Shown one piece after another: positions 11,840-28,639 of a DNA stretch of 32,000 bases. Position 1 is the first letter of the stretch. Every line of letters starts with the position of its first letter. Both the position numbers and the translations under genes were made by a program. The notes beneath the pieces are model-generated. The model did no database searches. It was not told the DNA's origin and saw nothing but the letters and a program-made list of their open reading frames with translations. Source of the DNA: Sorangium cellulosum So ce56 (GTDB taxonomy: Bacteria > Myxococcota_A > Polyangia > Polyangiales > Polyangiaceae); NCBI RefSeq assembly GCF_000067165.1, contig NC_010162.1:8747989-8779988 (forward strand), read 5' to 3'.

Positions 11840-11949
11840 CGGTCCGTCTGAACGAACCACGAGGGGGCGATCGGCTTCGACGTGGGGACTGAAGGTCTGT
11901 CTGCGTGCTGGCGGCTCCTGCTCCGCCTATCAAGCGGGACGTTACAAGT

Positions 11950-11985
11950 GCGAACGACAACGCATACGCTGTCGCGGCCTAATAA
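11950..11985 (+). other. tmRNA tag reading frame (ANDNAYAVAA, double stop)
   Basis: GCG AAC GAC AAC GCA TAC GCT GTC GCG GCC TAA TAA. The resume codon is GCG at 11950. Confidence 0.8.
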
Positions 11986-12139
11986 CCGCTAAGCCATCCG
12001 AGGAGAAGGTCGTCCTAGTACTCTAAGGGTGTCAACCACAGGGCTGGGTCGCGTGAGGACGCCCTCGATAACGCGGCCGAGATTCAGTGAGGGATAGGTC
12101 GTAGCCGAATCTACGAACGCCGTCGCCGGCGCATGGCGA

Positions 12140-13411
<1,272 letters not shown>

Positions 13412-13447: not shown

Positions 13448-14149
13448 CTACTTCTGCTTCGCCTCCCACGCGCGCAGGGCGCGCGCGAGGGCTGCCACCT
13501 TCTCCGGGGGCAACGGCGGCTTCGTGGCGCTCTGCGTGTGAAAGCGGCTGATCTGGGAACGCTCGACGCCGGAGAGCTTCGCGAGCTGGGCTTGGGTAAG
13601 GCCCCGCTCGAAACAGCGGGCCATGAGCTCGCGGACGTCGGTCTCGCCGATTTCGCCAGCGGGAGCGCGCGCGGGCGGAGCCGCGGGCGCGGGTTCTGCG
13701 GAAGGCTGGCGCAGCGTCGAGATCAAGCCCTTGATGACCGACGACCGCGACACCTTGTCCGCGAGGCCGGGCGGCGCAATGGCGCGCTGGCGCTCGACCT
13801 CTGCATCCACGGTCTCGACCTCTCCCGGGGTGAGCCGGACGTGGACCATGACACCGGCGACGGTGCTGCGGTCTTCCTTCGGGGGGCGGCCCATGCGTGC
13901 CATGCTCTTGATCCTTTCCTTCACGGCTTCGTCGACTTCTCGACGCTCTTCTCCGGAGACGATGCGAACGATCGCGCAGAACCGCGGCCAGGGCTGCGCG
14001 AGCGCCCACGCGCGGAAAGCGCCAGGCGGGTCCGCGTGCTTCAGGATCTTCTGGCAGAGCTCGCGGCTCGCCGGGTCGGGGTTCGGCTCGGCCAGAGCAT
14101 GCCGAACCGCTGCGCTACCCCATATCTTGCACGCGATGGAGAAACTCAC
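13448..14149 (-). CDS. DNA-binding protein (central 'GRPPK...VHVRLTPGE' RHH/MobC-like segment, C-terminal XRE-type HTH)
   Basis: 'LTQAQLAKLSGVERSQISRF' is an HTH. 'MGRPPKEDRSTVAGVMVHVRLTPGEVE' resembles RHH/MobC-type N-termini. The GTG start at 14149 overlaps the upstream stop (GTGA). An internal ATG start is possible. Confidence 0.6.
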   Translation of the reverse strand: MSFSIACKIWGSAAVRHALAEPNPDPASRELCQKILKHADPPGAFRAWALAQPWPRFCAIVRIVSGEERREVDEAVKERIKSMARMGRPPKEDRSTVAGVMVHVRLTPGEVETVDAEVERQRAIAPPGLADKVSRSSVIKGLISTLRQPSAEPAPAAPPARAPAGEIGETDVRELMARCFERGLTQAQLAKLSGVERSQISRFHTQSATKPPLPPEKVAALARALRAWEAKQK

Positions 14150-14850
14150 TCTCTCGACCTCGCGAGCACCTTTCGCACGGTTTCAGCCGCCCAGCTACCA
14201 CCCCGCTTCGTCCGATACCCCTCGTCGGTGAGCGTGGCTGCGATCTCGCGCAGCGAGAGGCCATCGGCGCGGAGCGCGAGGATCCGATCGACGGTCGCAG
14301 CCTCGTCCTGCACGCAGGCGATGATGCGCCGGCCGTCTGCATCGGCCTCCCCGGTGTGAACCCACCCGAGCGCCGCCCCGCCGAGCCGCACGCCATCGGC
14401 GCGAAGCTGGGCGAGCGCGTCACGCGTGCGCTCGGCGGTCGCTTCGCGCTCCCACTGCGAGACCGACGCAAGCACGTTCAGCACGAGGCGACCCGCGGCA
14501 GAGCGCGTGTCGATCGAATCGGCGACCGACAGGAGCGAGAAGCGATCGGCGAAGTACCCGGCGATCAGCGCGTCGAGGTCGCGCACGCTGCGCGTGAGCC
14601 GATCGAGCTTCACCACGAGCAGCGCGGAAGCCTGGCCAGCGTCGAGCATGCCGAGGGCGCGTTGCAGGCCGGGGCGGTCGAGCGTCTTGGCGCTGACGCC
14701 AGGGTCTTCGATGATGTCCACGAGGTCGAGATCCATGGCCGTCGCGTAGGCTTCGAGCTTCGTCCGCTGCGCCGCGAGGCTCACGCCGCCGTCCGCCTGA
14801 TGCTCGGTCGAGACCCGCACGTACCCGATCGCCCTCGTCCGCTCGCCCAT
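14146..14850 (-). CDS. small serine recombinase (resolvase/invertase family)
   Basis: 'AIGYVRVSTEHQ' (catalytic Ser), 'LLVVKLDRLTRS' and 'VLASVSQWEREATAERTRDAL'. ATG at 14850. The long N-terminal extension in the ORF track (to 15540) is Arg/Ser-rich noise that overlaps the RuvC-like gene. Confidence 0.85.
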   Translation of the reverse strand: MGERTRAIGYVRVSTEHQADGGVSLAAQRTKLEAYATAMDLDLVDIIEDPGVSAKTLDRPGLQRALGMLDAGQASALLVVKLDRLTRSVRDLDALIAGYFADRFSLLSVADSIDTRSAAGRLVLNVLASVSQWEREATAERTRDALAQLRADGVRLGGAALGWVHTGEADADGRRIIACVQDEAATVDRILALRADGLSLREIAATLTDEGYRTKRGGSWAAETVRKVLARSRE

Positions 14851-14881: not shown

Positions 14882-15430
14882 TCAAGGGAGATTGCTATCG
14901 AGCTCTGCCGAGATCGCCCACGGCTGCGACGCGGGCGCAGGCCCCTTCTCGCGGATCGTGCTCCACGCGACCGCGGCGGCGTCCCGCGCGTGCTCGCTCG
15001 ACCGGGCGGGCCATCCGGCAACCCGCGCGCGGATGGCGATGGCGAGCGCGGCGTCCCCTGCTCTGGCGCATCCCAGGGCCGAGCGCACCGCCTGGAGCGT
15101 CGCGGTGCGGACGACGAGCCCCCGTGCCGCCGCGAGGCCGGCAAGCTCGGCCCCGACCCATGACGCGCCACAGAGCTCGCTGGCCATGGCAGCGCAGAAC
15201 CGCGGGCGGGGGAAGACGCGGACGACGCGCTCGACGGCGACCAGCGCCGGGCGGTAGCGCGAGAGCAGCGCCCCTGCGGCCGTGCGCAGCGCCTCGAGCC
15301 CGGGATCGCCCGCGAGGTCGACGGGAAGCACGCCGGAGCCGACGTGCCGCGCGCCTGCCGCGTCCACGTCGAGCGCAGCCCATCCCACGCGGGCGGCACC
15401 AGGGTCGAACCCAAGCACGATGGTGTCCAT
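14882..15430 (-). CDS. RuvC-like Holliday-junction resolvase
   Basis: 'IVLGFDPGAARVGWAAL' (the first Asp motif, cf. RuvC 'ILGIDPGS'), 'LVAVERV' (Glu) and 'EHARDAAAVAW' (the C-terminal acidic pair, cf. 'DAADALAIAI'). Confidence 0.65.
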   Translation of the reverse strand: MDTIVLGFDPGAARVGWAALDVDAAGARHVGSGVLPVDLAGDPGLEALRTAAGALLSRYRPALVAVERVVRVFPRPRFCAAMASELCGASWVGAELAGLAAARGLVVRTATLQAVRSALGCARAGDAALAIAIRARVAGWPARSSEHARDAAAVAWSTIREKGPAPASQPWAISAELDSNLP

Positions 15431-15442
15431 CGGGAAAGCCTC

Positions 15443-15529
15443 ACGTCCCCAGCACGCGGCATGCCGGCCCGCGCTGATTTACTTGCGAGTAAATCAGCGC
15501 GGGCCGGCATGCCGCGTGCTTGGGGACGT
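15443..15529. repeat. 87-nt near-perfect inverted repeat (41/42-bp stem, 4-nt loop)
   Basis: The left arm (15443-15483) is the reverse complement of the right arm (15488-15529) apart from one extra T. The loop is 'tgcg'. It lies between the rep stop (15583) and the RuvC-like start (15430). Confidence 0.9.
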
Positions 15530-15582: not shown

Positions 15583-17088
15583 TCAGGCGCCATCGTAGCC
15601 TCGTGGATCGAAGCGGCGGCGCACTCCGTTCGCGTTCCGCTCCGCCTCTCCGCCATGGGCCTGCATGGGCCTGGAAGCCGATGGCGACGAGCACGCGGGG
15701 CCTTGGCTCGCTGCCAGCGTCGCGAGCCGAGCACGACGAGCGCCGGGGCTCGGCGGGGCAGGAACGCCGTTCCGCGCCACGCCGATCTCGACCACCGTCC
15801 CGCGCGGCGCCGCGTCGGAGCCGACAATCCAGCCGAGCGCGTCATACGCGATGCGCACCATCTCGACGTCGCCCGCCACGTGCGCCTTGACCATCCCTTG
15901 AATCAAGTGTTCGGCCATCATCATCCGCGGATTGGCGTGCTCCACACTGGATCTGTCCGCCGCAAGCGCCTCTGCGCTCTCCGAAGCGGCACCGCCCAGC
16001 CGCGCCCATCCGGCGCTCACGCGCGCCGTGAGATCGACAGCCGCGTCCGAGGCACCCACGGCGCGCAGGAATGCTCGGATCTTGCCCTCGGCCGCGTCTT
16101 GGGAGAGCCCGTCTCCGGCCAGGCGTGAGACCATCGCGCCAATGACCTGAGGCCACGTGGCGCCGCCCCGAGCTCGATGCATGCGCACCGCGGGGAGCGC
16201 TCCGGACTGCGTGAACACGGCTTGTTGTAGAACCGCCCAGCGTGGATCCACCTCGCAGCGCTCCTTGCGCGTTGCTGTTCCGGGTAGGACAAGACGCAGC
16301 GTCTTGCGGGTGAACCTCTGCCACACGGGATCAAGATGTTCGGGCAACGACGACGGCGAGCGTAGGCCGAGCTCGGTCAGCTGGCGGCCGCGCAGGCGAA
16401 TCTCCGTCCGCCACACTTGCCCCTCCCCGTCCCAACCGTGCGCCATCCACCCCGCGCGCTCCATAGTGGGGCGGGATGAATCGCGCTTCCCACGCAGGTC
16501 CTCTGTCTTGTTGTAGAGCGCAAAGATCAGGTTTCGCCTGTCGCCTACATGCAAGCCCGTGACTATGGGGCCGTTGCGCGTCCGCCGCATCTCGGTGCGG
16601 AAGCTGCTCATGCGGCGCAGCCGGCCGACGAACGCCTCCCGATCGGCCTCGCTGAACGTCGTACCTGCGAGATCAACGCAGAGATCGAGCTCTTGGACCT
16701 GGCCTGCTGGCGTCTCGGAGTCGGAGCCGGCGAAGTGCGCGGCGATCTCTGCGGCGTGGTTCACGGCTTCCGCCAAGGGGCGCGACGCGAGAAAGGGAAC
16801 CGCGAGATCCACGATGATGCCCCCCTCCCCGACGAAGACCCGGCCGCTCGGACTGACCGCACAGAACGCCTTGCCCCGCCTGCCCTGCCGCTCGACCGCG
16901 AAGCGCTCGCCTGCGAGCACGACGCACGCCCCGCCGCTGCGCGCCTCCAACTTGGCGCGCGCCAGCTCTTGCAGCACTGCGGGGCAGACGCGCATGGGGT
17001 AGCGGATCGCCAGCGCATCCACCCGTGCCCCGACGACGTAGGGGCTGCTCCCGGCGTGCGGGGCGGTGGTGTTTGAACACCCCTTCAT
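15583..17088 (-). CDS. replication initiation protein, Rep_trans-like (rolling-circle type)
   Basis: Ordered motifs resemble the Rep_trans family: 'RVDALAIRYP', 'ELDLCVDLAG', 'GLHVGDRRNLIFALYNKTEDL' (candidate catalytic Tyr) and 'VWRTEIRLRGRQL'. The assignment rests on motif recall only. Confidence 0.6.
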   Translation of the reverse strand: MKGCSNTTAPHAGSSPYVVGARVDALAIRYPMRVCPAVLQELARAKLEARSGGACVVLAGERFAVERQGRRGKAFCAVSPSGRVFVGEGGIIVDLAVPFLASRPLAEAVNHAAEIAAHFAGSDSETPAGQVQELDLCVDLAGTTFSEADREAFVGRLRRMSSFRTEMRRTRNGPIVTGLHVGDRRNLIFALYNKTEDLRGKRDSSRPTMERAGWMAHGWDGEGQVWRTEIRLRGRQLTELGLRSPSSLPEHLDPVWQRFTRKTLRLVLPGTATRKERCEVDPRWAVLQQAVFTQSGALPAVRMHRARGGATWPQVIGAMVSRLAGDGLSQDAAEGKIRAFLRAVGASDAAVDLTARVSAGWARLGGAASESAEALAADRSSVEHANPRMMMAEHLIQGMVKAHVAGDVEMVRIAYDALGWIVGSDAAPRGTVVEIGVARNGVPAPPSPGARRARLATLAASQGPACSSPSASRPMQAHGGEAERNANGVRRRFDPRGYDGA

Positions 17089-17100
17089 AAGGCTTCCCGG

Positions 17101-17487
17101 TCACCTTCGCGTCGTGCGACGGTTCGACGGTCGGAGCGGAATTCCCGCCTTTTCGAGCAGGGCGCGATCGTCGTCCGCGTCGTCTACGGGCTTGCGTTCA
17201 CGACGTGCCAGCTTTCGGCTCTCGATCCAGGTCTCGACGTCGGTCCAGAGCGCGACGACCTCGCGCCTGCGTTTGAACGTGGCGAAGTGCCCGCGGCGCC
17301 CGGCGTCCAGAAACGCCCGGGCGGAGCCGAGCGGGTTCAACTTCGCCGTTGCGTAGCGCGGCGTCAGCTGGACGCTGATGCCGCCTACCTCGATGGCATC
17401 CGCCTGCGCGCGCATCGTGCGGACCTGCACGTCCAGTGCGTCCGCCCCCATGCGTAACAGCGTCGCGACGTGAACCGCGGCGCTCAC
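17101..17487 (-). CDS. hypothetical protein (weak excisionase/HTH-like resemblance)
   Basis: The GTG start at 17487 overlaps the RHH gene stop (GTGA). 'GHFATFKRRREVVALWTDVETWIESR' loosely resembles Xis/AlpA-type HTH C-termini. An alternative ATG lies at about 17451. Confidence 0.5.
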   Translation of the reverse strand: MSAAVHVATLLRMGADALDVQVRTMRAQADAIEVGGISVQLTPRYATAKLNPLGSARAFLDAGRRGHFATFKRRREVVALWTDVETWIESRKLARRERKPVDDADDDRALLEKAGIPLRPSNRRTTRR

Positions 17488-17693
17488 GGCTTACGCTCCG
17501 GTGTGGACTGGGCGCGCTCGATCTGCGCCAGGCGGATTCGGATGCCCTGCTCTGCGATCCTGGATTGCGGGATGCCCGTCGCCTCCGACAGCGCGCGGAG
17601 CCTCTCGCGCAGGTCGATCGGGATCGTGAGGTTCGAGGGGCGGCGCCGGGGCCGCCCCTGTCGACCAGCGTTCTTGTGCGCGTTGCTGTTCAT
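17484..17693 (-). CDS. ribbon-helix-helix (CopG/Arc-type) DNA-binding protein
   Basis: 'LTIPIDLRERLRALSEATGIPQSRIAEQGIRIRL' follows the beta-strand, helix, helix pattern. ATG 17693 is preferred over the ORF-track start at 17732. Confidence 0.65.
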   Translation of the reverse strand: MNSNAHKNAGRQGRPRRRPSNLTIPIDLRERLRALSEATGIPQSRIAEQGIRIRLAQIERAQSTPERKP

Positions 17694-17787
17694 ATGGGCG
17701 CACATCAAGCCGCACGGCCCGACGACGAGCAAGCCGCTACATAACGCACCCCTTCGTCTGTTATAACCGCCCAGGGCCCCCAGCCGG

Positions 17788-18787: not shown

Positions 18788-19030
18788 CTACCTGTCGTGC
18801 CGCACGAAGTGCCGCTCGATGGCGTCGAGGATCTGCAAGGCGCCGCGCGCTTCGGCGACGGCCTCGCGGTCCGCGCGAGTCGTCGCGCTCATCTGAGCGG
18901 CAAGCACGGCGGCCCAGAGCCGGTCATGGTCCCAGCGGTGGACGACGTACGGGTCAAGGGCGCGCGCCTGCTCCGCAAGGTAGGCGAGGTCTTCCCGGGT
19001 CAGTGCGCGGCGTGTCTCGCGGTCGCTCAT
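18788..19030 (-). CDS. small protein translationally coupled to the ECF sigma gene (anti-sigma candidate, unproven)
   Basis: ATG 19030-19028 overlaps the sigma gene's TGA stop at 19029-19027 (ATGA). The 80-aa product is 'MSDRETRRALTREDLAYLAEQ...'. No zinc-binding HxxxCxxC anti-sigma motif is present. Confidence 0.45.
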   Translation of the reverse strand: MSDRETRRALTREDLAYLAEQARALDPYVVHRWDHDRLWAAVLAAQMSATTRADREAVAEARGALQILDAIERHFVRHDR

Positions 19031-19587
19031 CGGCGCCACCTCCTCAACTTCAGCGCCAGCGCCTCGCGAGCGATGCGGAGCCTCGACGCCGCGGTGCTCG
19101 GGTTCATGCGCCGCCGCTTGGCGTACGCGACCAGCGACAGCGGGTCGTCCACCGAGAGGAGCGCGTCGCGTTGCCAGGGCGGCAAGCTGGCCATGGCGTC
19201 CAGCACCTCCCGCGCCTCGATCTGGGCGTGCATGTCGATGCCGACTGGCTCGTGCAGCAACCCGAGCGGTTCCGGATGAAGCACGGCGCGCCTCGACCAC
19301 GCGCTGTGGACGTAGTGCGAGGCGAGGCGCCAGGCGATGCCATGGAGCCACTTGCGTAGCGCGTCCCTGGGCTTATCCCGCGGGTCTGGTCTGTAGAGCC
19401 CACGGCGGACGGCGTTCCAGGCGTTGAGCAACACCTCGGCCTCCACGTCGCGGCGGTCGCGCCGCGGGATGCCAGCGAGCGTCGCCAGGACGATGCCGCG
19501 CTCGGCAAGGATCTCCTCGATGCTCGGTCGCTTCCTGGGGTGTCGTGCGGCAGGCGGGCGTCCGGCCCCCTTCCGCCGGGGCTTCAC
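19027..19587 (-). CDS. ECF-type sigma-70 family RNA polymerase sigma factor
   Basis: Region 2-like 'DVEAEVLLNAWNAV...WLHGIAWRLASHY'. Region 4-like 'LPPWQRDALLS...AYAKRRRMNPSTAASRLRIAREAL'. GTG start. Confidence 0.75.
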   Translation of the reverse strand: MKPRRKGAGRPPAARHPRKRPSIEEILAERGIVLATLAGIPRRDRRDVEAEVLLNAWNAVRRGLYRPDPRDKPRDALRKWLHGIAWRLASHYVHSAWSRRAVLHPEPLGLLHEPVGIDMHAQIEAREVLDAMASLPPWQRDALLSVDDPLSLVAYAKRRRMNPSTAASRLRIAREALALKLRRWRR

Positions 19588-19612: not shown

Positions 19613-19637
19613 GGAACCGCGGGCCGGCGGGCCCGTC
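19613..19637 (+). promoter_or_regulatory. ECF-type promoter-like motif GGAAC-N16-CGTC
   Basis: 'GGAAC' (19613-19617), a 16-nt spacer, then 'CGTC' (19634-19637). It is on the plus strand, divergent from the sigma gene and pointing toward the gene at 20077. This is a motif match only. Confidence 0.3.
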
Positions 19638-19884
19638 TGCAGAACAGGAAGCGGGCGGGCGAGCGGCCCGTCCTGAAGGCGGATCGGTTCCTTGGCCCGC
19701 CGGGGGGCGTAAGTATACAACGGACATGTCGGACCTCGCTCTATCGGGGTTCGGCCACGCCGCCCGGGGTGTTACCAGCACCCGCGGGCGGCACTTTGCT
19801 TGTCCGGCGAGCTTACGTGGTCAGCACGAGAAGGGCAATCGATACCCACACTCGGAGGCAACCGAATCGCGCCGTCCGGGTTTC

Positions 19885-19912
19885 TGACAACGAGACGCTC
19901 GTCTCGTTGTCA
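19885..19912. repeat. 28-bp perfect palindrome (copy 1)
   Basis: TGACAACGAGACG-CT-CGTCTCGTTGTCA. A 44-bp block (19871-19914) is 37/44 identical to 22168-22211. Confidence 0.9.
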
Positions 19913-20076
19913 CCCCCCTCTCGCAAGGTCCCTGGTCACATTGGCACATACTCGACGTCTACGATGTGAGGGCCAGGCAAGGGCCGGGAGAGGCAAGCCC
20001 TCCCTTTGACTCATTTCCCGAACCGCTCAGAGCATCGCGCACGCCACCGAATGACCGCCTCAAGACATCAACACCG

Positions 20077-21018
20077 ATGGAAGAAATAGCACTCGCGCTC
20101 TTCGGAATCGTCGCCGGCACCGTAGTGTCGCACTACTACTACAGAAAGTCGACGCTCAAGCAGCTCTCGGTGTATAAGTGGCTAAGTGCACGCATATTTA
20201 GCGGCATCGATCCCGATGTTCGGCACCAGCTACACTTCACCTTCCGTGGCGAAGAAGTAGACGATCTTCACCAGCTTGAGTTCTTGGTTGCCAACGACGG
20301 GGAACGCGCGATCAGCAACATCATTGAGCCCTTAACCATGCACCTCCCGCCTGGCATCAGGGTTCTTGACGCATCCATCATTTACCGACATCCCAACGAG
20401 TTTGCCGCCGAGATCGAGGTCTTCGCAGAGCCGAAAACTCCTCCGGCCATAAGACTAATATTCCCCCTCATGAACAAGGGCGAATTCATATTCGTCAAGC
20501 TACTTCTCGGAGGCGCACTTCGATCGAAGGATGTCGAATTTCGCTTACTCGCAGATGACCTACCTCGCTCGCTTAAATTCAAGCATCTGCCGGAGTCGGC
20601 AAATGTGAGAGACAGCTGGTTCGATCCATTCCAATTCTTTTTCGGATCCATAATCGCATGGCTCTCAGCAATTCCGGGGTATGTAGTGTATGCATTTTGG
20701 AAAGCCCAACCTGATATTTCTCCGTACCCTTGGTCAAACTTCAGGTTTTCGCCTGCTTCCATTGCTGCCCTCTTGATGGGCCTCATAGCTCTAATCATGG
20801 CAGCACTTGGCTTAACGATGGTAGTATCAAGCCTCCTTGGAGGCGCACTCTCCCGAGTGCCGCATTTTAAGCTCCCCACCGAGCTGCGGATGCGACAACA
20901 CGGGCTGCTAATCGATTTCGATCCAGAAGATCTTGATTTTCATTTATCGAACCGCGAGGAAGACCGATCGGCCAACACGCTGAAACTGGGCACAGGTCAC
21001 CGCGGTCCAGAAGAATGA
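20077..21018 (+). CDS. low-GC membrane protein of unknown function (1 N-terminal and 2 C-terminal TM helices)
   Basis: ATG 20077 gives 'MEEIALALFGIVAGTVVSHYYY' (TM), then a ~170-aa soluble domain, then 'FFFGSIIAWLSAIPGYVVYAFW' and 'IAALLMGLIALIMAALGLTMVVSSLL'. Hand counts of two 60-nt lines give 32/60 and 29/60 GC, against about 43/60 in a core gene. Confidence 0.7.
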   Translation: MEEIALALFGIVAGTVVSHYYYRKSTLKQLSVYKWLSARIFSGIDPDVRHQLHFTFRGEEVDDLHQLEFLVANDGERAISNIIEPLTMHLPPGIRVLDASIIYRHPNEFAAEIEVFAEPKTPPAIRLIFPLMNKGEFIFVKLLLGGALRSKDVEFRLLADDLPRSLKFKHLPESANVRDSWFDPFQFFFGSIIAWLSAIPGYVVYAFWKAQPDISPYPWSNFRFSPASIAALLMGLIALIMAALGLTMVVSSLLGGALSRVPHFKLPTELRMRQHGLLIDFDPEDLDFHLSNREEDRSANTLKLGTGHRGPEE

Positions 21019-21118
21019 CTTATCGCAGCTGAATCGCTCAAGGCGCGTAAGCCCGAAGCGTGCGAATTCACGGATTGAAGAGGCTACGGTTGACAGCTGG
21101 GGTGAGGACTCGACGGAA

Positions 21119-21545
21119 CTATCCGCCGCGCCGGGCGCGCTCGGCGGCGAGGTCGACCACGCCGGCCGCGTCGGCCCCTGGCGCGCCGAGCAGACGCCCG
21201 ATGGTCTCGTGGGCGATGCGCGCCGCCTCCACGTCGCCCGCCGCGAGCGCCGCCCGAGCTGGCGCTACCCGCCGCGCCGGGCGCGCTCGGCGGCGAGGTC
21301 GACCACGCCGGCCGCGTCGGCCCCTGGCGCGCCGAGCAGACGCCCGATGGTCTCGTGGGCGATGCGCGCCGCCTCCACGTCGCCCGCCGCGAGCGCCGCC
21401 CGAGCTGGCGCTACCCGCCGCGCCGGGCGCGCTCGGCGGCGAGGTCGACCACGCCGGCCGCGTCGGCCCCTGGCGCGCCGAGCAGACGCCCGATGGTCTC
21501 GTGGGCGATGCGCGCCGCCTCCACGTCGCCCGCCGCGAGCGCCGC
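21119..21545. repeat. 146-bp tandem repeat, 2.9 copies
   Basis: Units start at 21119, 21265 and 21411. Copies 1 and 2 differ at a single base as far as I can see (ctaTcc versus ctaCcc). Each unit encodes, on the minus strand, 'ALAAGDVEAARIAHETIGRLLGAPGADAAGVVDLAAERARRGG*'. Confidence 0.95.
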
Positions 21546-21722
21546 TCTCATGCCTTCCGCCAGCTGGCCGAGGAGCACCGTCCGCGGGTCCTCCGGTTTC
21601 GTCCGGGATTCGTCCGGCTCACGAGGTTTCGCGCACTTAGCCGCCGTCGTCGGCACGCTTGCCGCTCCCGTCGCATGCGGAAACCTACGCGATCCCTGCG
21701 GATCCCTACCCTCGGCAGGCGT
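21411..21722 (-). other. displaced 3' coding segment of int (C-terminal tail of the excised-form integrase)
   Basis: In phase with the att core ('VEAPGIE') and open for 103 further codons ('TPAEGRDPQ...ERARRGG*'). The distal 43 codons are very GC3-rich (41/43). Confidence 0.55.
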
Positions 21723-21745
21723 TTCGATTCCCGGCGCCTCCACCA
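21723..21745 (+). repeat. attR core (second copy of the tmRNA 3' end)
   Basis: Identical 23 bp to 12185-12207. Followed directly by an intrinsic terminator. Confidence 0.85.
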
Positions 21746-21748
21746 AAA

Positions 21749-21780
21749 AGACACGGCGAAAGCCGTGTCTTTTTTCTTTT
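21749..21780 (+). terminator. rho-independent terminator (the displaced native ssrA terminator)
   Basis: Stem 'AGACACGGC', GAAA loop, 'GCCGTGTCT', then 'TTTTTTCTTTT'. Confidence 0.85.
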
Positions 21781-22181
21781 GTGGGCTCTGCGGGTGACCT
21801 GACAAAGTTTTGCGAGGTCTGGCGAGGCTGGACGGTGTGAGACAGAGCACCGGCAGCGGATGGCCATAGCCGAACCGGCGGAACGGAACGGGGCGGGATG
21901 GTCGACTGGGGGCCTGCGATCCGGATCCCGGGTCCGCCCTGCTGGAAGCCAGGACCAGTGAAGCGGGACCGGTTGTAGGTGGACCGGAGGCGACCCCGAT
22001 CCCCCTACCTACCCGAGACGATGCAGCCGAGCGGGCGCCTCTTGACACGGGACGGTAGCTCCGCTGACCTCACAGAGGGAGGTGGCCACGAGGATGGCTC
22101 GAGCGGCCATGAGGGCCGGAGAGACGCGCTCTCGGCGCGGACCGCATCCGTCGGCGCGTAGGGTTGTGCCGTCGGATCTTC

Positions 22182-22209
22182 TGTCAACGAGACGGTCGTC
22201 TCGTTGACA
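22182..22209. repeat. 28-bp perfect palindrome (copy 2)
   Basis: TGTCAACGAGACG-GT-CGTCTCGTTGACA. It lies 65 nt beyond the stop of the minus-strand gene at 22274-23590. Confidence 0.9.
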
Positions 22210-22273
22210 CCAAGCCTCCGGTCCCAGTGCTTACGTCGGGAGCTGTAAAAGGCCACCGCATGATGGGAGGAGC

Positions 22274-23590
22274 TTACTTCTTCACCTTGCGCTGCTTGGC
22301 GGCCTTCGCTCGGCGCTGTTTTCGGGGCGCATCGGACATACCGTCTGCGGCATGTTTTGCGACCTTTCGCCGAAGTAAATCCGCGAAACGGCGAGGACTC
22401 GGTTTGCTAAGCATTTTTTCGAGACCAAACGTGTCGACTGCGCCAAGCGTCTGGTTCAGCGCAGCGCCGACCAGTGTGCCGGCGACGAGACCTTCGGGCG
22501 ATCCGATGGCGGTACCGACGATTCCGCCAAGAGCGCTAAACGTCGATAGTCGCACATGCTTAAACCAAACACGATCCTTTAACGGCTTACCATGAATGCT
22601 CGCCAACCATGCTTTCGCAACGGCTTCCGCGTCGCGCGGGTTCGGCTGTCCCCAAAGCCATTGGCGAAATTCAAGCGTTGCAGGGTCATTGCGAAGGCGC
22701 ACCACATCCTGTGGCGTAATAATATTCTGAGCCAAGAGCCTCGGAATGCTCGGTAGGTGTTCCAGGATGAGACCTTTCTCCACAGCCTCAAAAACACCCG
22801 AGTCGTTCACAATCTCCCCGAATCGAAGCAATTGTCTCCATGCCCAGTCGCTCTCATGCAGGTCGAACTCCATGTCATAGAGAACGATCCCTTTCGCAAT
22901 ATCCTCGGCAAGACCAGATAGACGCTTTCTGCCAGCGTCATCCAATTTTTCACGCGACTTGTTCTTGTCGAAGCCAAATCGCTGCAGCGCCCCGCCATCA
23001 TAGGCTGAACGCACCGCGCCGATCGCATCGTGAGGCACGTTTGCGGCGGGCAGATGTGTTCGCTCGGCGGCGAGCTTCGCAAGCCGTTCGAGCTTCGCCC
23101 AGGGCAGACCAGACCATCCTCTAAGACCCATTTCAACCGAGGCCTGAGGATCGCTGTGAGCAGGATCGCTATGATTACCCGCTGCAAGAGGGTCAATGCC
23201 CGTAATCTTTTGTTTCTGCTCCAGCGGCCAGTAAAGCACCATCGGTCGCCACAACAGAAACTGCAGGGAGCTCTCCTCCAGAAGCTGCTCTACACCCTCG
23301 ACACCGAAAATTCTGATAAGTAGACAGAGAGGAACATTTTCGCCGTATACATGGCAGCATACGGCGGGCGACAAGAGGAGAGCTTCTGAAACATGCAGCG
23401 TCTCTGCTGCCGCACCAAGAATCACGGCAGGAGCAAGCTTCGAGGGGGCCTTTGGGTTCTTGAACCAGCGACTCGCGAGCTCGTCGAATCCGGTAGTGTA
23501 AAGGGCGCGCGGCAGTCGGGGCGCCGTCGAACTCACCTTTTCGGGCTCACCTTGCGTGCGGGCGCGGTGCTTCTTTTCACTGCGCTTCAT
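22274..23590 (-). CDS. low-GC hypothetical protein (438 aa; C-terminal glycine-zipper-like segment and Lys/Arg tail)
   Basis: Strong SD 'AAGGGAGGTAAGCG' immediately before ATG 23590. 'FSALGGIVGTAIGSPEGLVAGTLVGAALNQTLGAV' is followed by a basic tail 'RKQRRAKAAKQRKVKK'. One 60-nt line counted 32/60 GC. No domain recognised. Confidence 0.75.
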   Translation of the reverse strand: MKRSEKKHRARTQGEPEKVSSTAPRLPRALYTTGFDELASRWFKNPKAPSKLAPAVILGAAAETLHVSEALLLSPAVCCHVYGENVPLCLLIRIFGVEGVEQLLEESSLQFLLWRPMVLYWPLEQKQKITGIDPLAAGNHSDPAHSDPQASVEMGLRGWSGLPWAKLERLAKLAAERTHLPAANVPHDAIGAVRSAYDGGALQRFGFDKNKSREKLDDAGRKRLSGLAEDIAKGIVLYDMEFDLHESDWAWRQLLRFGEIVNDSGVFEAVEKGLILEHLPSIPRLLAQNIITPQDVVRLRNDPATLEFRQWLWGQPNPRDAEAVAKAWLASIHGKPLKDRVWFKHVRLSTFSALGGIVGTAIGSPEGLVAGTLVGAALNQTLGAVDTFGLEKMLSKPSPRRFADLLRRKVAKHAADGMSDAPRKQRRAKAAKQRKVKK

Positions 23591-24100
23591 CGCTTACCTC
23601 CCTTGGTTAACTCCCGATCGCTTCGACTTGTGCTTATGTCGTGTTGAGCTAGATGTGACTGAGCGAGTGGCAGACTAGGTCGTCCAAGCGATCCCGCGGG
23701 CGCCATCTGAGTTGGACAAGAATGACTCTCCGGAGAATACATCGCTTGCGTCGACCTGCGACCCTCTTGAGAGTCCTGGTGAAGCGGTGGACACAGTGAG
23801 TTTTGTCGTAGTGCTAGACTTGACTGTGGATTTGACTTCAATGAGCCTATCCTATCTAACTAGCGGAACCGGTGTCTGGGATTAGATGTGGCCATGGGCT
23901 GGCTCCCAACGCAGCGTACAAGTGAACAGCGCGCGGATTGGTGTGCTCAGCATCAGGCATATTCCAAGTGGCGACATTGACCTATTATGTGAGATAGTGG
24001 TATCTTGACGATGCAGACGATGCTGGCCCACCACCAAACGATGAGCCGAAGTTATATACCGTGCCGGCTGCGCTCTGCCGCAAGATCCATGACGCCACGC

Positions 24101-24283
24101 GACGACGCCGGCCGCGTCGGCCCCCGGCGCGCCGAGCAGGTGTCCGATGGTCTCGTGGGCGAGGCGCGCCGCCTCGACGTCACCCACGGCGAGCGTCGCC
24201 CGCGCGGGTGCTACCCGCCGCGCCGGCTGCTCTCGGCGGCGAGGTCGATAACGCCGGCCGTGTCGGCCCCTGGCGCGCCGAGC
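24101..24283. repeat. diverged 1.25 copies of the 146-bp int-tail repeat, truncated by IS66
   Basis: Same 146-bp register (the unit boundary 'ctacccgccgcgccgg' is at 24211). Minus-strand reading gives 'GDVEAARLAHETIGHLLGAPGADAAGVV' and 'GAPGADTAGVIDLAAESSRRGG*'. The IS66 left end cuts the right edge at 24283/24284. Confidence 0.75.
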
Positions 24284-24358
24284 GTAAGCGCCCGACCAAC
24301 GCCATCGTGATCGTCGGCGTGGCGCCGGTTACCTATCCCCATCGCGAAGGAGGAAGCG

Positions 24359-24697
24359 ATGGCGACGAAGGCGGAGTGGGCCGAGCGGGTGGAGCGATGG
24401 GAGCGCAGCGGGCTGAGCGCCGAGAGGTTCGCGCGGCGTGAAGGATACAAGCCGAAGCAGCTCTACTGGTGGCGCTGGAAGCTGCGAGCTGACCGGCCCT
24501 CACAGCCCTCGCCGTCGTCGTTGACCGAAGCACCGCGCTTTCTGCCGGTCCACGTGGTGGCGGACGCATCGATCGTCGCGCCGGAGCCGATCGAGATCGC
24601 GCTGCCCAACGGGCGGGTGGTGCGGGTCCGGCCGGGCTTCGACCCGGCCACGCTCGAGCGGGTCCTGGCGCTCGCGGCCGAGGAGACGCCATGCTGA
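24359..24697 (+). CDS. tnpA: IS66 accessory protein TnpA (orf1)
   Basis: 'MATKAEWAERVERWERSGLSAERFARREGYKPKQLYWWRWKL' is typical of IS66 orf1. SD 'GAAGGAGGA' lies upstream. Confidence 0.85.
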   Translation: MATKAEWAERVERWERSGLSAERFARREGYKPKQLYWWRWKLRADRPSQPSPSSLTEAPRFLPVHVVADASIVAPEPIEIALPNGRVVRVRPGFDPATLERVLALAAEETPC

Positions 24698-25113
24698 CGC
24701 TGCCGCCGTCGGTGCGCGTGTACATCGCAGCCGAGCCCACGGACCTGCGCAAGAGCTTTGATGGGCTGTCGGCCTTGGTCTCTCAGCGCTTCGGAGCTGA
24801 CCCGCTCTGCGGGCATCTGTTCGTGTTCAGGAATCGGCGTGGTGACCAGGTGCGCGTCTTGTTCTGGGACCGCACCGGCTACATGATCGTGGCGAAAAAA
24901 TTGGCCCGCGGGCGCTTCCACCTCGCCCGCGACCTGCCCAAGGGGGCCACCCACGTCGAGGTCGAGGCGGCCGAGCTGTCGCTGATGCTCGAAGGGTTCG
25001 ACCTGTCCGAGGCCGTGCGGCGCAAGCGCTGGAGACCCAGCGTGAGAAAAATTGCTCCGTCGAAGCAAAGCTTGATGGATGCGCGTGGGATAGCTATCTC
25101 GCGCGCCACGTGA
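24691..25113 (+). CDS. tnpB: IS66 accessory protein TnpB (orf2)
   Basis: 'VYIAAEPTDLRKSFDGLSALV...LFVFRNRRGDQVRVLFWDRTGYMIVAKKLARGRF' is the characteristic IS66 Orf2 sequence. Its start overlaps the tnpA stop. Confidence 0.9.
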   Translation: MLTLPPSVRVYIAAEPTDLRKSFDGLSALVSQRFGADPLCGHLFVFRNRRGDQVRVLFWDRTGYMIVAKKLARGRFHLARDLPKGATHVEVEAAELSLMLEGFDLSEAVRRKRWRPSVRKIAPSKQSLMDARGIAISRAT

Positions 25114-25385
25114 CCAGTCCTCTTCAGTCCCAGGCACAACTGCCCGCCGATCTGGCGGACGTGCGGAGCAAGCTCGAGCAGCTGGCGGCCGCCGGGCAGC
25201 TTCCGGAGCTCATCGACCTGGTGCTCGGACTGCTGGTCCAGCTGCGCGACAAGAACACCGCGCTCTCGGCGAGGCTCGCAAGCGCGCTGCGCGAGCTCCC
25301 CCCGTGTCAGAGAAGTTGGCGCCCGATCTGATCCGCTTACGCACGATCAGGTCACCGCGTTCGGGGAGCGGAGACAGGCTTTGAG

Positions 25386-25919
25386 GTGAGAGAGTACTCA
25401 GAATCCTTCAAAAGAAAAATCGTCCAACGGCTGCTCGCCCCAGGAGGACCGACGGCGGTGGCGCTGTCCGTCGAGACGGGGGTGCATCAGACGACGCTCT
25501 CGCGCTGGCTTCGCGATGCTCGTAGCCTCGCGCCCATGTCCGATGACGCTCACCGCTCCGCGCCCCCGCCTCCTGCCGCTGCTCGCCGCCCGGAGGACTG
25601 GACCCCGGAGCAGAAGCTGCGCGCGGTGACGGAGGCGGCCGCGCTCTCCGAGCGGGAGCTGGGCGAGTTCCTCCGCCGCGAGGGGCTGCACGAGGCGCAG
25701 CTCGGCGAGTGGCGCAAGGCCGCGCTGGAGGCGCTGGGCGGGCCGGCAAAACCAGGGCACGGCACGGCCCCGTCGCGGCGGGTTCGGGAGCTAGAGAGGC
25801 AACTGCGGCGCAAGGACAAGGCGCTGGCCGAGGCGGCGGCCATTCTGGTGCTCCAAAAAAAAGCCCAGGCCATCTGGGGGGACGGGGACGACGACACGGA
25901 CCCGGAGACCGACAGGTGA
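25386..25919 (+). CDS. IS3-family transposase OrfA (HTH)
   Basis: GTG start. 'SFKRKIVQRLLAPGGPTAVALSVETGVHQTTLSRWLRDA' is an HTH, followed by a coiled-coil-like 'RELERQLRRKDKALAEAAAILVLQKK'. Confidence 0.8.
   Translation: MREYSESFKRKIVQRLLAPGGPTAVALSVETGVHQTTLSRWLRDARSLAPMSDDAHRSAPPPPAAARRPEDWTPEQKLRAVTEAAALSERELGEFLRREGLHEAQLGEWRKAALEALGGPAKPGHGTAPSRRVRELERQLRRKDKALAEAAAILVLQKKAQAIWGDGDDDTDPETDR
25855..25862 (+). promoter_or_regulatory. A8 slippery run, candidate -1 programmed frameshift site (orfA-orfB)
   Basis: 'CAA AAA AAA G' in the orfA frame. The orfB frame is -1 relative to orfA and is open across this site (from 25709). Confidence 0.5.
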
Positions 25920-26938
25920 CGCTCGAGCTCATCGACGAGGCCGTCCGTGGCGGCGCCACACTCGCAGCGGCCTGCCGTGCGCTCGGACTCAGTGAGCGTA
26001 CCGTCGCCCGCTGGCGAGGGGAGGCTGGCGGCGAGGACGGTCGAGCCGGACCGCACCACGCGCCGGTGCACAAGCTGACCGAGGCGGAGCGTCGAAGGAT
26101 CGTCGAGACGGCCAATAGCCCCGAGTTCCGCAACCTCTCGCCCAAGCAGATCGTCCCGCGTCTGGCCGACCGCGGCGTGTATCTGGCATCGGAGTCGAGC
26201 TTCTACCGCGTCCTGCGCGAGCAGGGGCTGCTGGCGCACCGCAATCCGGCTCGACCAGCGAGCGCCCATCGTCCTCGGGCGCTCGTCGCCAAGAGGCCCA
26301 ATCAGGTGTGGTGTTGGGACATCACCTACCTGAAGAGCGCGGTGCGCGGTGCGTTCTATTTCCTGTACCTGATCGTGGACGTCTACAGTCGCAAGATTGT
26401 CGGCTGGTCGGTCGAGACCGACGAGTCGATGCTCGCTGCCGCTCGTCTCGTCGAGCAGACCTGCCGTCGCGAAGCCGTGGGCTCCGGCTGCCTGGTGCTG
26501 CACGCGGACAACGGCGGCCCGATGAAGGGCTCGACCATGCTCGCCACCCTCCAGCGCCTGGGCGTCGTGCCCTCCTTCAGCCGCCCTCGCGTCAGCGACG
26601 ACAACCCGTACGCCGAGGCCCTCTTCCGCACCCTCAAGTACCGGCCCGAGTACCCACGCCGCCCGTTTGCCACCGTGGAGCAGGCACGCCACTGGGTTGA
26701 GCGCTTCGTCGCCTGGTACAACGGCGAGCACTTGCACAGCAGCATCCGCTTCGTCACGCCCGACGACCGACACCGGGGGCGCGACGGCTCGCTGCTCGCC
26801 GCCCGCCATGCCCTCTACCAGCGGGCCCGCCGCAGGACGCCCCTGCGCTGGACCGGCCAGACACGCAACTGGACCCCGATCGGTCCCGTGACCCTCAACC
26901 CCCACACTCACGAGGCTCAAGCACTCACGAGGATGTGA
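25916..26938 (+). CDS. IS3-family transposase OrfB (DDE/rve integrase core)
   Basis: 'VWCWDITYL...YLIVDVYSRKIVGW...LHADNGGPMKG...NPYAEALFRTLKYRPEY...YNGEHLHSSI' gives the DDE spacing. GTG 25916 overlaps the orfA stop (GTGA). It may instead be made as an OrfAB fusion by frameshifting. Confidence 0.8.
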   Translation: MTLELIDEAVRGGATLAAACRALGLSERTVARWRGEAGGEDGRAGPHHAPVHKLTEAERRRIVETANSPEFRNLSPKQIVPRLADRGVYLASESSFYRVLREQGLLAHRNPARPASAHRPRALVAKRPNQVWCWDITYLKSAVRGAFYFLYLIVDVYSRKIVGWSVETDESMLAAARLVEQTCRREAVGSGCLVLHADNGGPMKGSTMLATLQRLGVVPSFSRPRVSDDNPYAEALFRTLKYRPEYPRRPFATVEQARHWVERFVAWYNGEHLHSSIRFVTPDDRHRGRDGSLLAARHALYQRARRRTPLRWTGQTRNWTPIGPVTLNPHTHEAQALTRM

Positions 26939-28639
26939 CCGAATCAACGGACAACTATCTTGACACCCACCGAGCTGTACGGCCGCAAGAGCCAGCAGGT
27001 CTCTACCGAGCAGCTGATGCTGATGTTCGCCGAGCTCGGGGCGGAAGCTCCGCCGGGGGCGGCGGGCTCGGAGCTCGGCGCGGACGCTGCGCCGCAGCCG
27101 GAGCAGGGGCTGGTGCCGCAACCCCCTGAGCCGCCGAAGCCGCCGCGAGGACGGGGCGGGCGCGCGCCGCTTCCCGAACACCTTCCGCGTGAGACGCGCG
27201 TGGTGCCCGTCCCCGAGGCCGAGCGGACGTGCCCGCAGTGCGGCGCGGACAAGAAGTGCATTGGCCATCGTACGAGCGAAGTGCTCGAGTTCGTGCCGGC
27301 GCAGTTCAAGATCATCGAGGAGCAGCGGGAGAAGCTCGCCTGCCCGCGCTGCCCGGAGCAGGGTGTAACGACGGCGGACAGCGAGAAGGTGATGGACCGA
27401 GGGCGTCCGGGACCGGGGCTGCTCGCCAGCATCCTTGTCGAGAAGTTCGAGGACTCGATGCCGCTGTACCGGCAGTCGCAGCAATACGCTCGCTTCGGCG
27501 TGTCGCTGTCTCCGTCGACTCTGGGCGACTGGTCGGCCTTCGCGCTCGACGTGCTCGCTCCGGTGGCTGAGAGGATCGCGGAGCGGGTGCTGGACTCGTT
27601 CTACTTGCGCGCCGACGACACGGGGATGCGGGTGCTGGATCGAGATCATCCGGCGGGGGTGAAGCGAGGTCATATCTGGGCCTTCGTCGGGGCGGGTCTC
27701 GTGGCGTTCCTGTACGCACCGGACTGGAAGGCGAAGCATCCAGCCGCGCTGCTGCAGGGCTTCACCGGCTACTTGCAGGGCGATGGGTACGCGGGCTATG
27801 GCGCGATGCTCCGCGGAGGCGACGACGGCGAGATGATCGTGCCCGAGGAGCGTCGGCTCGGCTGCGGGATGCACATCCGCGCCAAGTTCGAGAAGGCGGC
27901 CAAGGGTGGCGACGCGCGAGCGGCGGTAGCGCTCTCGTACTTCAAAGCCATCTACCGAATCGAGTCGACCTGCAAAGAGGAGGCGCTGTCCACGGAGGCG
28001 CGGCTGGCGCGCCGGCAGGAGCGGTCGCTCCCCGTTGTGGACGAGCTGTATCAGTGGATTCACGAGCTGCACCTTCGGCTCGTACCAGGTACGCCGCTCT
28101 GCATCGCTACCCAGTACGCCATCAATCAGGCGGCTGCGTGGCGGCGCTGCTTCACGGATGGACGCTTCGAGATAGACAACGGCGAAGTCGAGCGGCAGCT
28201 AAGACGTGTAGCCCTCGGAAGAAAAAACTATTTATTCGCGGGCTCCGATAAGGGCGCTCAGCGCCTGGCCATCGGCTATACGATCTTCGGCTCGTGTCGG
28301 ATGCACGGAGTCAACCCGCTCGCCTGGGCGACAGACGTCATCGGCAGGTTGCAGGCGGGCTGGCAGCGCGACCGCCTGGACGAGTTGCTGCCCGACGCAT
28401 GGGCGAGATCGTCGCGCGCTGCTCCGAGCGCCGGCGATACCGACGCGACCTGAACAACGCGAGCCTCGGCCGGCGACGCAGGCGGATGCCGCTTCGCCGG
28501 GCCTTCTTTCAGGACCGTCTGTGCCCGCGCCGAGTCGTGGGCCGACGCCGCCCCGCGCCCAGCATCGTCGACCCCGGCGAGAGCCGCAAGGGGCTGTGCC
28601 CATGGCGTTGGCCGGGCGCTTACGACCAATAACCTCGAC

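Follow-up and report, generated by a model that had tools for sequence, protein, structure and literature searches.

The subject of this analysis is a window of 32,000 nucleotides from Sorangium cellulosum So ce56 (contig NC_010162.1, positions 8,747,989 to 8,779,988; the window is this whole stretch, and all positions below refer to it), in which two genomic islands lie in tandem at the transfer-messenger RNA (tmRNA) gene ssrA and each carry one copy of a 28-bp palindrome. Our preferred reading, which we hold tentatively, is that the palindrome together with an oriented 18-nt flank on its left is a cis-acting site of the origin or DNA-processing region of the island, putatively recognized by a dimeric protein, and that it is at the same time the junction at which cargo is joined. 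One part of this reading is shared with two rival explanations, an operator and a serine-recombinase site, and can be stated more firmly: it is likely that the palindrome is a DNA site bound by a dimeric protein.

Two palindromes in two tandem islands

A preliminary description of the window had reported two perfect palindromes with a compensated difference between them, and this was confirmed in all details. Copy 1, TGACAACGAGACG-CT-CGTCTCGTTGTCA, and copy 2, TGTCAACGAGACG-GT-CGTCTCGTTGACA, are fully self-complementary over 28 bp, with 13-bp arms, and the only differences between them are found at arm position 3 with its partner position 26 (A:T changed to T:A) and at the first central base. 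The surrounding 44-bp blocks (19871-19914 and 22168-22211) are 84% identical (37/44), attR sits between the two copies, and the distances to the neighboring genes are indeed 165 nt from copy 1 to the ATG at 20077 and 65 nt from copy 2 to the stop codon of the gene at 22274-23590. No further copy of the core is present in the window, even with three mismatches permitted, while 0.01 matches are expected by chance (100 dinucleotide-preserving shuffles, none of which had two or more matches). As RNA or single-stranded DNA, each copy folds into a 12-bp stem with a 4-nt loop.

Island 1 comprises 9.5 kb, is bounded by attL and attR and bears an integrase gene, as is characteristic of tmRNA-integrating genomic islands, and the same direct-repeat and integrase structure at ssrA recurs in So ce381. 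Copy 2 had been described as lying outside the island, and it does lie outside island 1, but inside a second, decayed island of the same family at the equivalent position: to the right of attR, the island pattern is repeated in the order flank, copy 2, low-GC gene and 146-bp repeat, hence copy 2 belongs to a mini-island, into the attL side of which island 1 integrated at a later time. The two copies are orthologous sites of two islands in tandem at ssrA, and not the two ends of one element. The earlier suggestion that they delimit a small mobile unit of 19.9-22.2 kb had to be abandoned, as this interval holds attR and the border of two islands and is carried as a unit in no other strain. A unit resembling IS200/IS605 insertion sequences (IS) or miniature inverted-repeat transposable elements was likewise rejected, since islands elsewhere have one palindrome each, and no HUH (Y1) transposase is encoded adjacent to it.

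The IS66-family element that truncates the mini-island carries tnpA, tnpB and a DDE transposase gene, is interrupted by a nested IS3-family element (25386-26938), and is not flanked by an 8-bp target-site duplication. Because this duplication is lacking, the mini-island has probably been deprived of its right end by a deletion or rearrangement, and no further att copies that could bound the mini-island are found in the window within 3 mismatches. In So ce381 (locus L039; numbers with L designate the island loci compared), three copies of the tmRNA 3' end are present (8094-8116, 9903-9925 and 19530-19552), with a 9.6-kb island followed by a 1.8-kb att-bounded segment that contains no palindrome. 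Because of these three copies, tandem accretion at ssrA appears to be common in the genus Sorangium. Table 1 lists the features of the window.

Table 1. Features of the two islands and their surroundings in the So ce56 window
Feature	Position	Strand	Remarks
tmRNA gene (ssrA)	11863-12207	+	integration target
attL	12185-12207		23 bp, tmRNA 3' end
Tyrosine integrase, island 1	12140-13411	-	Phage_integrase domain
HTH_31 protein	13448-14149	-	233 aa
Serine recombinase	14146-14850	-	234 aa; catalytic domain and part of Recombinase domain, resembles N-terminal half of CcrB
RuvC-like protein	14882-15430	-	182 aa
78-bp near-perfect palindrome	15447-15524		37-bp arms, loop TGCG; between stop of Rep gene and start of RuvC-like gene
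Rep_trans-fold rolling-circle initiator or relaxase-like protein (predicted)	15583-17088	-	501 aa
Ribbon-helix-helix (RHH) protein	17484-17732	-	upstream of Rep gene, same strand
Sigma-70/extracytoplasmic function (ECF)-like protein	19027-19587	-	transcribed divergently from palindrome region
LA non-coding region left of copy 1	19620-19884		265 bp, right of sigma gene; 73-92% identical in 10 other islands
GC-rich hairpin	19759-19792		stem of 13 bp, one bulge; loop TTACCAG, which reads CTGGTAA on the minus strand; ~90 nt to the left of copy 1
Oriented 18-nt left flank (GCGCCGTCCGGGTTTC-TG type)	19867-19884	+	shared with copy 2 (22164-22181) and most Sorangium copies
Palindrome copy 1	19885-19912		island 1; 13-2-13, centre CT
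Cargo slot of island 1	19913-21118	+	low-GC membrane-protein gene 20077-21018
146-bp tandem repeat	21119-21545	-	2.9 copies; right edge of cargo slot of island 1
attR	21723-21745	+	23-bp copy of tmRNA 3' end, identical to attL
Left part of mini-island (LB flank)	21746-22181		~440 bp; through palindrome, identity of 90% with So ce426 and of 80% with So ce1153
Palindrome copy 2	22182-22209		tandem mini-island; 13-2-13, centre GT, arms TGT...ACA
Cargo slot of mini-island	22210-24099	-	low-GC gene 22274-23590 (-)
146-bp repeat remnant of mini-island	24100-24283	-	1.3 units, 89% identical to island 1 repeat; cut by IS66 left end
IS66-family element truncating mini-island	24283-28624	+	23-bp inverted repeats 24283-24305 and 28602-28624

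Conservation of the palindrome sequence

The inner 20 bases of the palindrome do not vary among 16 copies from 13 strains, with two decayed copies as the only exceptions. The pairwise identity of these 20 nt is 100%, compared with 80% for the 150 nt to the left in an unbiased set of loci (see below) and 75% in all LA-type loci. Variation is restricted to the centre, which is GT, CT or GA, and to the outer three positions of the arms, where most copies have TGA-TCA, and TGT-ACA (copy 2), TGG-CCA (So ce26b), TGT-TCA, CGT-TCA, CGT-ACA, TGA-ACA, TGA-TAA and AGA-TCA are found as well.

The preliminary description had taken the compensated difference between the two window copies as covariation that argues for a selected site, an argument that proved weaker than it had been presented. 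Compensatory variation is confined to the outer pair 3/26, where it occurs but is not obligatory: the arms are uncompensated in the copy 2 relatives L044 (TGT...TCA) and L046 (CGT...TCA) and in So ce381 (TGA...ACA). In copy 2 itself, the partner base is ambiguous, as it lies 3 nt from a recombination junction with novel DNA and therefore may have arrived with the new flank. An independent compensated case is provided by a locus of So ce26 (L018, So ce26b), which has TGG...CCA, while L022, its relative with 95.5% identity, has TGA...TCA, and this double change supports a restoration of symmetry.

What could such symmetry be maintained for? If it served to keep an RNA stem, the palindrome would be a terminator or insulator without U-tract, or a stabilizer in a 5' untranslated region (5'-UTR), between backbone and cargo. 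A stem of very high stability is predicted (-24 to -27 kcal/mol, z = -4.4 to -5.2, both strands), two outer pairs are compensated (T:A in copy 2, G:C in L018), and the palindrome is placed between transcription units, also at copy 2, where the gene that ends 65 nt away is convergent. However, there is no U-tract, as had already been noted for the two window copies. These have none on both sides and both strands, and all 16 copies are without one on either strand, whereas the canonical terminator of the tmRNA at 21745-21774 has one. The inner 10 pairs never covary or make use of G-U wobble despite a flank divergence of 20-25%, which argues for selection on sequence rather than on pairing, and uncompensated outer mismatches are tolerated (L019, L039, L044, L046). 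Rfam gave nothing near the gathering score in the vicinity of the palindrome and no match even at E values up to 5, and covariation support is lacking as well: a structured RNA ending in the palindrome was rejected, as the covariation term of an RNAalifold analysis of 8 sequences was unfavorable (+4.18) and only the palindrome was consistently paired. An RNA hairpin is therefore quite improbable as the function of this element.

Of the two possibilities that had been put forward earlier, a selected stem-loop or a strictly symmetric dimer-binding site, the pure stem-loop is disfavored because it is the sequence of the inner 20 nt, beyond their pairing, that does not vary; what stands is a selected, island-specific site, with binding by a dimer among the best readings. 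The invariance without covariation in the inner stem points to a sequence-specific recognition of the DNA duplex by a symmetric protein. Sigma-70 promoters or terminators were found at neither palindrome, and the number of such sites in the region is at or close to the shuffle expectation. A sigma-54/ECF-type promoter motif beside the palindrome, searched for by eye, was dismissed, as the candidate -35 region is not conserved among the loci.

Distribution of the palindrome

We scanned 185,579 species-representative genomes with the query CAACGAGACG-N(0-6)-CGTCTCGTTG and obtained matches at 32 loci. The 2-nt spacer is present in 11 of them, and 8 of these belong to five Sorangium genomes (1-3 per genome). 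All 8 share flanks with the window, while the flanks of the remaining matches are unrelated, so that the element is confined to one family of Sorangium islands. No core match was found in viral contigs, metagenomes yielded four hairpins that are all unrelated, and degenerate extra copies with up to 7 mismatches are absent from 16 loci. A repetitive extragenic palindromic (REP) element had been considered earlier, with a genome-wide search as the means to recognize it. REP elements and the mosaic elements composed of them (BIMEs) share with our palindrome the appearance of a GC-rich perfect hairpin in intergenic DNA, as do Rho-independent terminators, but 1-3 exact and exclusively island-linked copies per genome, without GTAG-type head and without REP-associated tyrosine transposase (RAYT), do not agree with such a repeat, just as the missing U-tract and an invariance in sequence, and not only in structure, do not agree with a terminator. 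A dispersed REP-like repeat is ruled out by copy number and by the kinship of the flanks in the genome, viral and metagenome scans, and a cos or pac site shared with a helper phage is unsupported, as the core is absent from viral contigs.

Templated correction can yield compensated changes in a single event, and the palindrome might thus be nothing but a functionless by-product of template switching or hairpin-templated repair, or a generic REP-like repeat. The coexistence of perfect and imperfect versions would agree with such an origin, but it would not account for inner arms that are invariant over strains whose flanks diverge by 20-25%, for the fixed place of the palindrome in the island architecture, or for a low copy number with strict island linkage, given the chance expectation in the window. 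This explanation is largely refuted by copy number and conservation pattern, and we regard it as very improbable.

A sample that is independent of the palindrome was obtained by collecting islands via homologues of the small open reading frame (ORF) that ends in the 146-bp repeat. At 8 of 9 Sorangium loci found in this way, the palindrome is at the expected place (So ce375, So ce185, So ce119, So ce429 and a near-identical sister strain, So ce381, So ce426 and So ce1153), and only the locus of So ce1151 has none. The inner 20 nt are intact in 6 loci. In So ce119, So ce429 and its sister strain, So ce381 and So ce426, at most one outer mismatch is seen, and So ce1153 has two, while in the other two loci, So ce375 and So ce185, the left arm is decayed and the right arm that adjoins it is perfect. 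A search of the literature yielded no relevant account of a tmRNA island in Sorangium.

The edge of the palindrome as cargo junction

The alignments of the window with other islands begin at 18509, 19496 or 19628, have identities of 73-92%, and every one of them ends at 19912 +/-3 nt, i.e. at the last base of copy 1; this break in homology holds against 10 or more islands. Homology resumes at 21119, which is the first base of the 146-bp repeat and belongs to the stop codon of a copy of the minus-strand ORF, and it continues through attR. The same is seen at copy 2, where window positions 21746-22209 are 90% identical to So ce426 until the final palindrome base and divergent beyond, and where the mini-island relatives L044 and L046 also align through the last palindrome base before they diverge. 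Eight different right-hand junctions all fall within -2 to +3 nt of the palindrome edge, and the one left-hand junction, in So ceGT47, is at the first palindrome base. We infer from this clustering a mechanistic hotspot of breakage and joining, because, if selection did no more than preserve an essential element, the junctions would not all be expected at its edge.

Between the palindrome and the 146-bp repeat, each strain has different DNA, mostly of low GC content; the GC content of the window is ~70%. As genes for an AIPR protein (So ce375), for an AAA_15/21 ATPase together with a GmrSD_N protein (So ce134) and for an FRG-domain protein (So ce26) occupy this place in other strains, the slot is a hotspot for cargo of the defence type. 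In the window, the cargo proteins (20077-21018, 22274-23590 and 28640-29878) match no Pfam or PADLOC family, and neither PHROGs matches for the first two nor an NCBIfam match for the first were found. The third of them is a 412-aa ORF of low GC content (57%) that starts 16 nt past the right end of the IS66 element and may be further island cargo.

Four types of left flanks exist, namely the non-coding LA region of the island backbone, the mini-island type LB (copy 2, So ce426, So ce1153), LC (So ce375, So ce185) and LD (So ceGT47), and all four are found joined to one right flank, RA. RA follows the palindrome in 10 of 18 copies and starts with ATCTTCGCGAACGyTCTGGACTCCAAGC-ATG, the ATG of which opens a 247-aa gene in So ce119. 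In 7 loci of other strains, it continues with 1-2 exact copies of a 42-bp iteron-like unit with the core CCTATTCrCGGGAATACGCAGATA, ~180-310 nt to the right of the palindrome; the loci with this unit include L044 and L046. In the three loci that were examined for repeats, it forms three tandem repeats (L016 671-795, L037 10904-11029, L010 1933-2056). In the mini-islands of So ce426, So ce1153 and So ce185, the order is tmRNA gene, ~450-500 bp, palindrome, RA with iterons, a single cargo gene, the 146-bp repeat including the small ORF, and att; the palindrome is thus kept where there are zero backbone genes.

The 146-bp unit at the other side of the slot encodes the C-terminus of the small minus-strand ORF (21411 to about 21640), which is paralogous to the C-terminal domain of the island's Rep protein (residues 368-440, 31-35% amino-acid identity). 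Each 146/147-bp unit corresponds to the last ~47 codons and the stop codon of this ORF, with a period that is not a multiple of 3, leaving one copy in frame, and the copy number ranges from 1 to 7 between strains (window, L033, L036, L018, L022). Metagenomic relatives of the small ORF, P0015 and P0020, are fused to N-terminal helix-turn-helix (HTH) domains of the XRE type, which hints that the shared domain might be a dimerization or partner module of DNA-binding regulators. In So ce119 (L036, 10250-12555), a lone 146-bp unit stands between two cargo units, a SprT-like gene and the 247-aa gene, an arrangement that resembles a cassette array.

One way to account for such an architecture would be a cargo-capture platform, with the palindrome as the fixed acquisition point at the edge of which an island protein cuts. 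The Rep_trans initiator, through strand transfer, and the RuvC-like resolvase, on the cruciform, would be candidates for this protein. Foreign defence modules of single genes would be joined there, and the 146-bp repeat with the small ORF would be the distal recombination partner, so that the island would act as an integron-like collector of cassettes that relies on rolling-circle or junction-resolving enzymes and not on an integron integrase. If true, this would explain the mini-islands as trans-mobilized cassettes. The variable single-gene cargo that begins at a fixed site and the two cargo units of So ce119 split by a 146-bp unit are reminiscent of integron attI and attC sites. In contrast to integrons, however, there is no integron-type integrase, the cargo has no fixed orientation, there is one palindrome for each island instead of one for each cassette, and the 146-bp unit is coding sequence and no imperfect palindrome like attC. 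We consider such a platform unlikely.

A different explanation starts from the geometry of the site. An arrangement of 13-2-13 bp is that of the 28-bp site I of resolvases, of the hix and gix sites of invertases, and, in its central dinucleotide, of the att sites of large serine recombinases. The palindrome could thus be a crossover site with 13-bp half-sites around a 2-bp overlap (GT, CT or GA), on which the 234-aa serine recombinase of the island acts with or without the 233-aa HTH protein; a central exchange between elements would re-assort left and right flanks and thereby swap cargo. The centre is the sole asymmetric part of the palindrome, as in resolvase site I, hix/gix or the Bxb1 att site with its central GT, the backbones of the window island, So ce119 and So ce381 have all kept the recombinase gene, and the flanks are mosaic, every left type being joined to one right type, with hybrid arms such as TGA...ACA, TGT...TCA and CGT...TCA. 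In L033 and L034, a degenerate left arm is combined with a perfect right arm, which resembles an attL/attR hybrid that involves a pseudo-site. On the other hand, the recombinase is truncated and covers only positions 8-228 of the 542-position CcrB model, without zinc-ribbon and coiled-coil parts, yet the same form is conserved in L036 and L039. The centres CT and GT of the window copies differ in either orientation and would not permit a productive mutual recombination, and a central crossover with foreign DNA would not yield the perfect right arm that is found where cargo starts directly after the palindrome. Accessory subsites or an enhancer were not identified beside the single site per island, and no cluster of extra half-sites, as expected for accessory resolvase or operator subsites, is present close to the palindrome. 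The gene is split alike in three islands (window 13448-14850, L036 17387-18789, L039 16887-18289), where the 234-aa catalytic part overlaps the start of the 233-aa protein with C-terminal HTH_31 domain, and this is either an arrangement of two genes that has been conserved or a frameshift common to the three islands. On balance, serine recombination at this site, and with it the re-assortment of flanks by central exchange, appears improbable.

Could the palindrome simply be a transcriptional operator? In this case a dimeric repressor of the island (RHH, Xre/HTH_31 or other) would silence the adjacent cargo gene, in many cases a toxic gene for defence, or the divergent sigma gene, the site would have no DNA-processing role, and the junction would be sharp only because the palindrome is the last element that selection preserves. 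Dyad symmetry with invariant sequence is expected of an operator, RHH and HTH proteins are encoded in the backbone, the small-ORF relatives P0015 and P0020 carry their XRE domains, and the position upstream of cargo genes is suitable, as a start codon follows after 28 nt in RA-type loci (the conserved ATG), after 18 nt together with a ribosome-binding site in L019, and after 65 nt at the FRG-domain gene of L018. However, operators of RHH and Xre proteins normally have half-sites that are shorter than a fully conserved 13 bp, there is one site per island without auxiliary operators, and next to copy 2 and in L022 the neighboring cargo gene is directed towards the palindrome. Moreover, an operator would leave unexplained why eight independent junctions fall into a 6-nt window, and why the palindrome is retained in mini-islands that have no regulator. 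Both an operator role alone and the selective origin of the junctions that it implies are therefore rather unlikely.

An initiator of the Rep_trans fold

The origin reading draws on the 501-aa protein that is encoded in the backbone. Sequence searches with this protein in Pfam, PHROGs, NCBIfam, PADLOC and PDB were all without match, and a first AlphaFold model from 13 sequences had a predicted local distance difference test score (pLDDT) of 58 and no Foldseek match. The identification is based on a deeper alignment from an exhaustive HMMER search (2159 representatives at E values up to 1e-3). In 36 homologues, D135, D139, Y192-x-K194, E210 and R227-x-E229 are invariant, and these residues fit the motifs of Rep_trans proteins, which are the DDE metal ligands, YxKxxE and xRxE (PMC5714925). 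PF02486 (Rep_trans) is matched by 5 of the 36 remote homologues, the window protein itself remaining below Pfam significance, and one homologue is named “Replication initiation factor” in UniRef. The AlphaFold model from the 36-sequence alignment reached a pLDDT of 78, and Foldseek placed it next to known Rep_trans initiators, with 4CIJ first (E = 9e-10, probability 1.00, target template modelling (TM) score 0.6), followed by 4CWE/4CWC (E = 3e-7 to 9e-7, probability 1.00). By predicted fold and by motifs, the protein is thus a Rep_trans-fold rolling-circle initiator or a relaxase-like protein. The RHH gene upstream on the same strand may well form one operon with the Rep gene.

A proposed role of the palindrome as a bind-type site

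In the plasmid pT181, the nick hairpin ICRII is accompanied by the bind site ICRIII, and ICEBs1 has the oriT of NicK. The classical nick site of Rep_trans proteins is CT'AA in the loop of a GC-rich hairpin. Generally, Rep_trans initiators and the related MOBT relaxases use such a nick site in a hairpin loop and a separate inverted-repeat bind site, and in the integrative and conjugative element (ICE) ICESt3 the bind site IR2 consists of two 13-bp arms 68 bp downstream of the nick, with RHH proteins being frequent accessory factors of these systems (PMC9371924). The preliminary description had mentioned a Rep nick site among the possible roles of the palindrome. As far as a Rep protein is concerned, this agrees with the Rep_trans-fold initiator that the island encodes, which is also why a Rep-linked symmetric binding site is among the best readings; the palindrome itself, however, cannot be a classical nick hairpin, as a loop of 2-4 nt is too small for CT'AA. 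For this reason the palindrome, with its 13-bp arms, its rank as the best-conserved non-coding element of the family and its retention in mini-islands, fits a bind-type element better than a nick hairpin.

We therefore propose as the most likely role that the palindrome is the “bind” inverted repeat of a double-strand origin (dso) or transfer origin (oriT) of the Rep_trans/MOBT type, comparable to ICRIII of pT181 and to IR2 of ICESt3. The 42-bp iteron-like units that follow it in other strains lend it an origin-like context. It could be bound by a dimer of the Rep protein or by an accessory RHH or HTH protein. Cleavage and rejoining at or beside the bound or extruded palindrome would then make its right edge the point at which cargo is joined, and the cutting activity could be a strand transfer by Rep or the action of the RuvC-like island protein on a cruciform. 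Since many islands have the site at 18-65 nt upstream of the start codon of their first cargo gene, its occupancy could additionally gate cargo transcription.

A number of observations weigh against this proposal. A classical Rep_trans nick hairpin is excluded at the palindrome by its small loop, and a convincing nick motif was not found. The GC-rich hairpin in the LA region has an invariant loop that lacks CTAA, and while it folds in the window and in L030 (So ce1335), no such fold forms in L016 (So ce134a), and the hairpin of L037 (So ce429) is different, which makes it a weak candidate for the nick hairpin, and mini-islands do not possess the LA region in which it resides. The palindrome is 2.8 kb away from the Rep gene, next to which the 78-bp near-perfect palindrome could be the real origin element: its DNA fold has -61.5 kcal/mol (z = -17), this palindrome is conserved in So ce381 and So ce119, and a role as single-strand origin, nick element or terminator is possible for it. 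The RA flank and the 42-bp iterons are absent from both window islands, and should these represent the origin, the window islands would have retained the palindrome but not the origin. The location 18-65 nt upstream of cargo genes suits a plain operator or a 5'-UTR hairpin equally well. Finally, 8 of the 16 copies were found by an exact core match, and only the small-ORF sample is unbiased in this respect.

Comparison with known systems

With the Rep_trans/MOBT type of oriT and dso, the Sorangium islands share the integrative nature of the element, the presence of an initiator with the predicted Rep_trans fold, and a non-coding perfect inverted repeat with 13-bp arms. The GC-rich hairpin ~90 nt upstream of the palindrome is comparable to the arrangement in ICESt3, where the nick hairpin IR1 and the bind site IR2 are 68 bp apart, and the position of the RHH gene relative to the Rep gene is in line with these systems, too. 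The host is different, as it belongs to the Myxococcota and not to the Firmicutes, and there are no conjugation genes in the island. The spacer between the arms is 2 bp, in contrast to 9 bp in ICESt3, a CT'AA sequence was not found, the candidate nick hairpin is not conserved in all islands, and the site is 2.8 kb away from the Rep gene.

From a second perspective, the islands resemble P4-like satellites, phage-inducible chromosomal islands (PICIs) and ICE hotspots, in which a conserved backbone has one bounded slot for strain-specific defence genes (here AIPR, GmrSD, AAA_15/21 ATPase and FRG); in the excised circle of the Sorangium island, the slot would adjoin att and the integrase gene, as in those elements. 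The main differences concern the boundaries, which are on the left one invariant palindrome of 28 bp, with the junctions falling within 3 nt, and on the right a 146-bp tandem repeat of the 3' end of a gene. Also, no link to capsids, packaging or a helper phage was found for the island.

By analogy, the kind of element would thus be a known one, the inverted-repeat cis site of a Rep_trans-type integrative element. What differs is the setting in the Myxococcota, in an ssrA island that has no conjugation genes, with a nucleotide-exact slot for defence cargo and with mini-island derivatives.

Significance for the Sorangium island family

For the So ce56 genome, the local annotation is corrected in that the ssrA locus carries two tandem islands, not one. 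If our reading is right, the element would be a concrete example of a palindrome that defines a recombination junction, and for myxobacterial defence genes it would be a nucleotide-exact landmark, as everything that lies from there to the 146-bp repeat can be regarded as candidate cargo. In our impression, Rep_trans-type systems have been studied mainly in Firmicutes, and if the proposed role is true, a precise cis-element of 44 bp would be available for such a system outside this phylum. In this case, the 28-bp site would be the handle by which the Sorangium island family both replicates or processes its DNA and swaps its anti-phage cargo.

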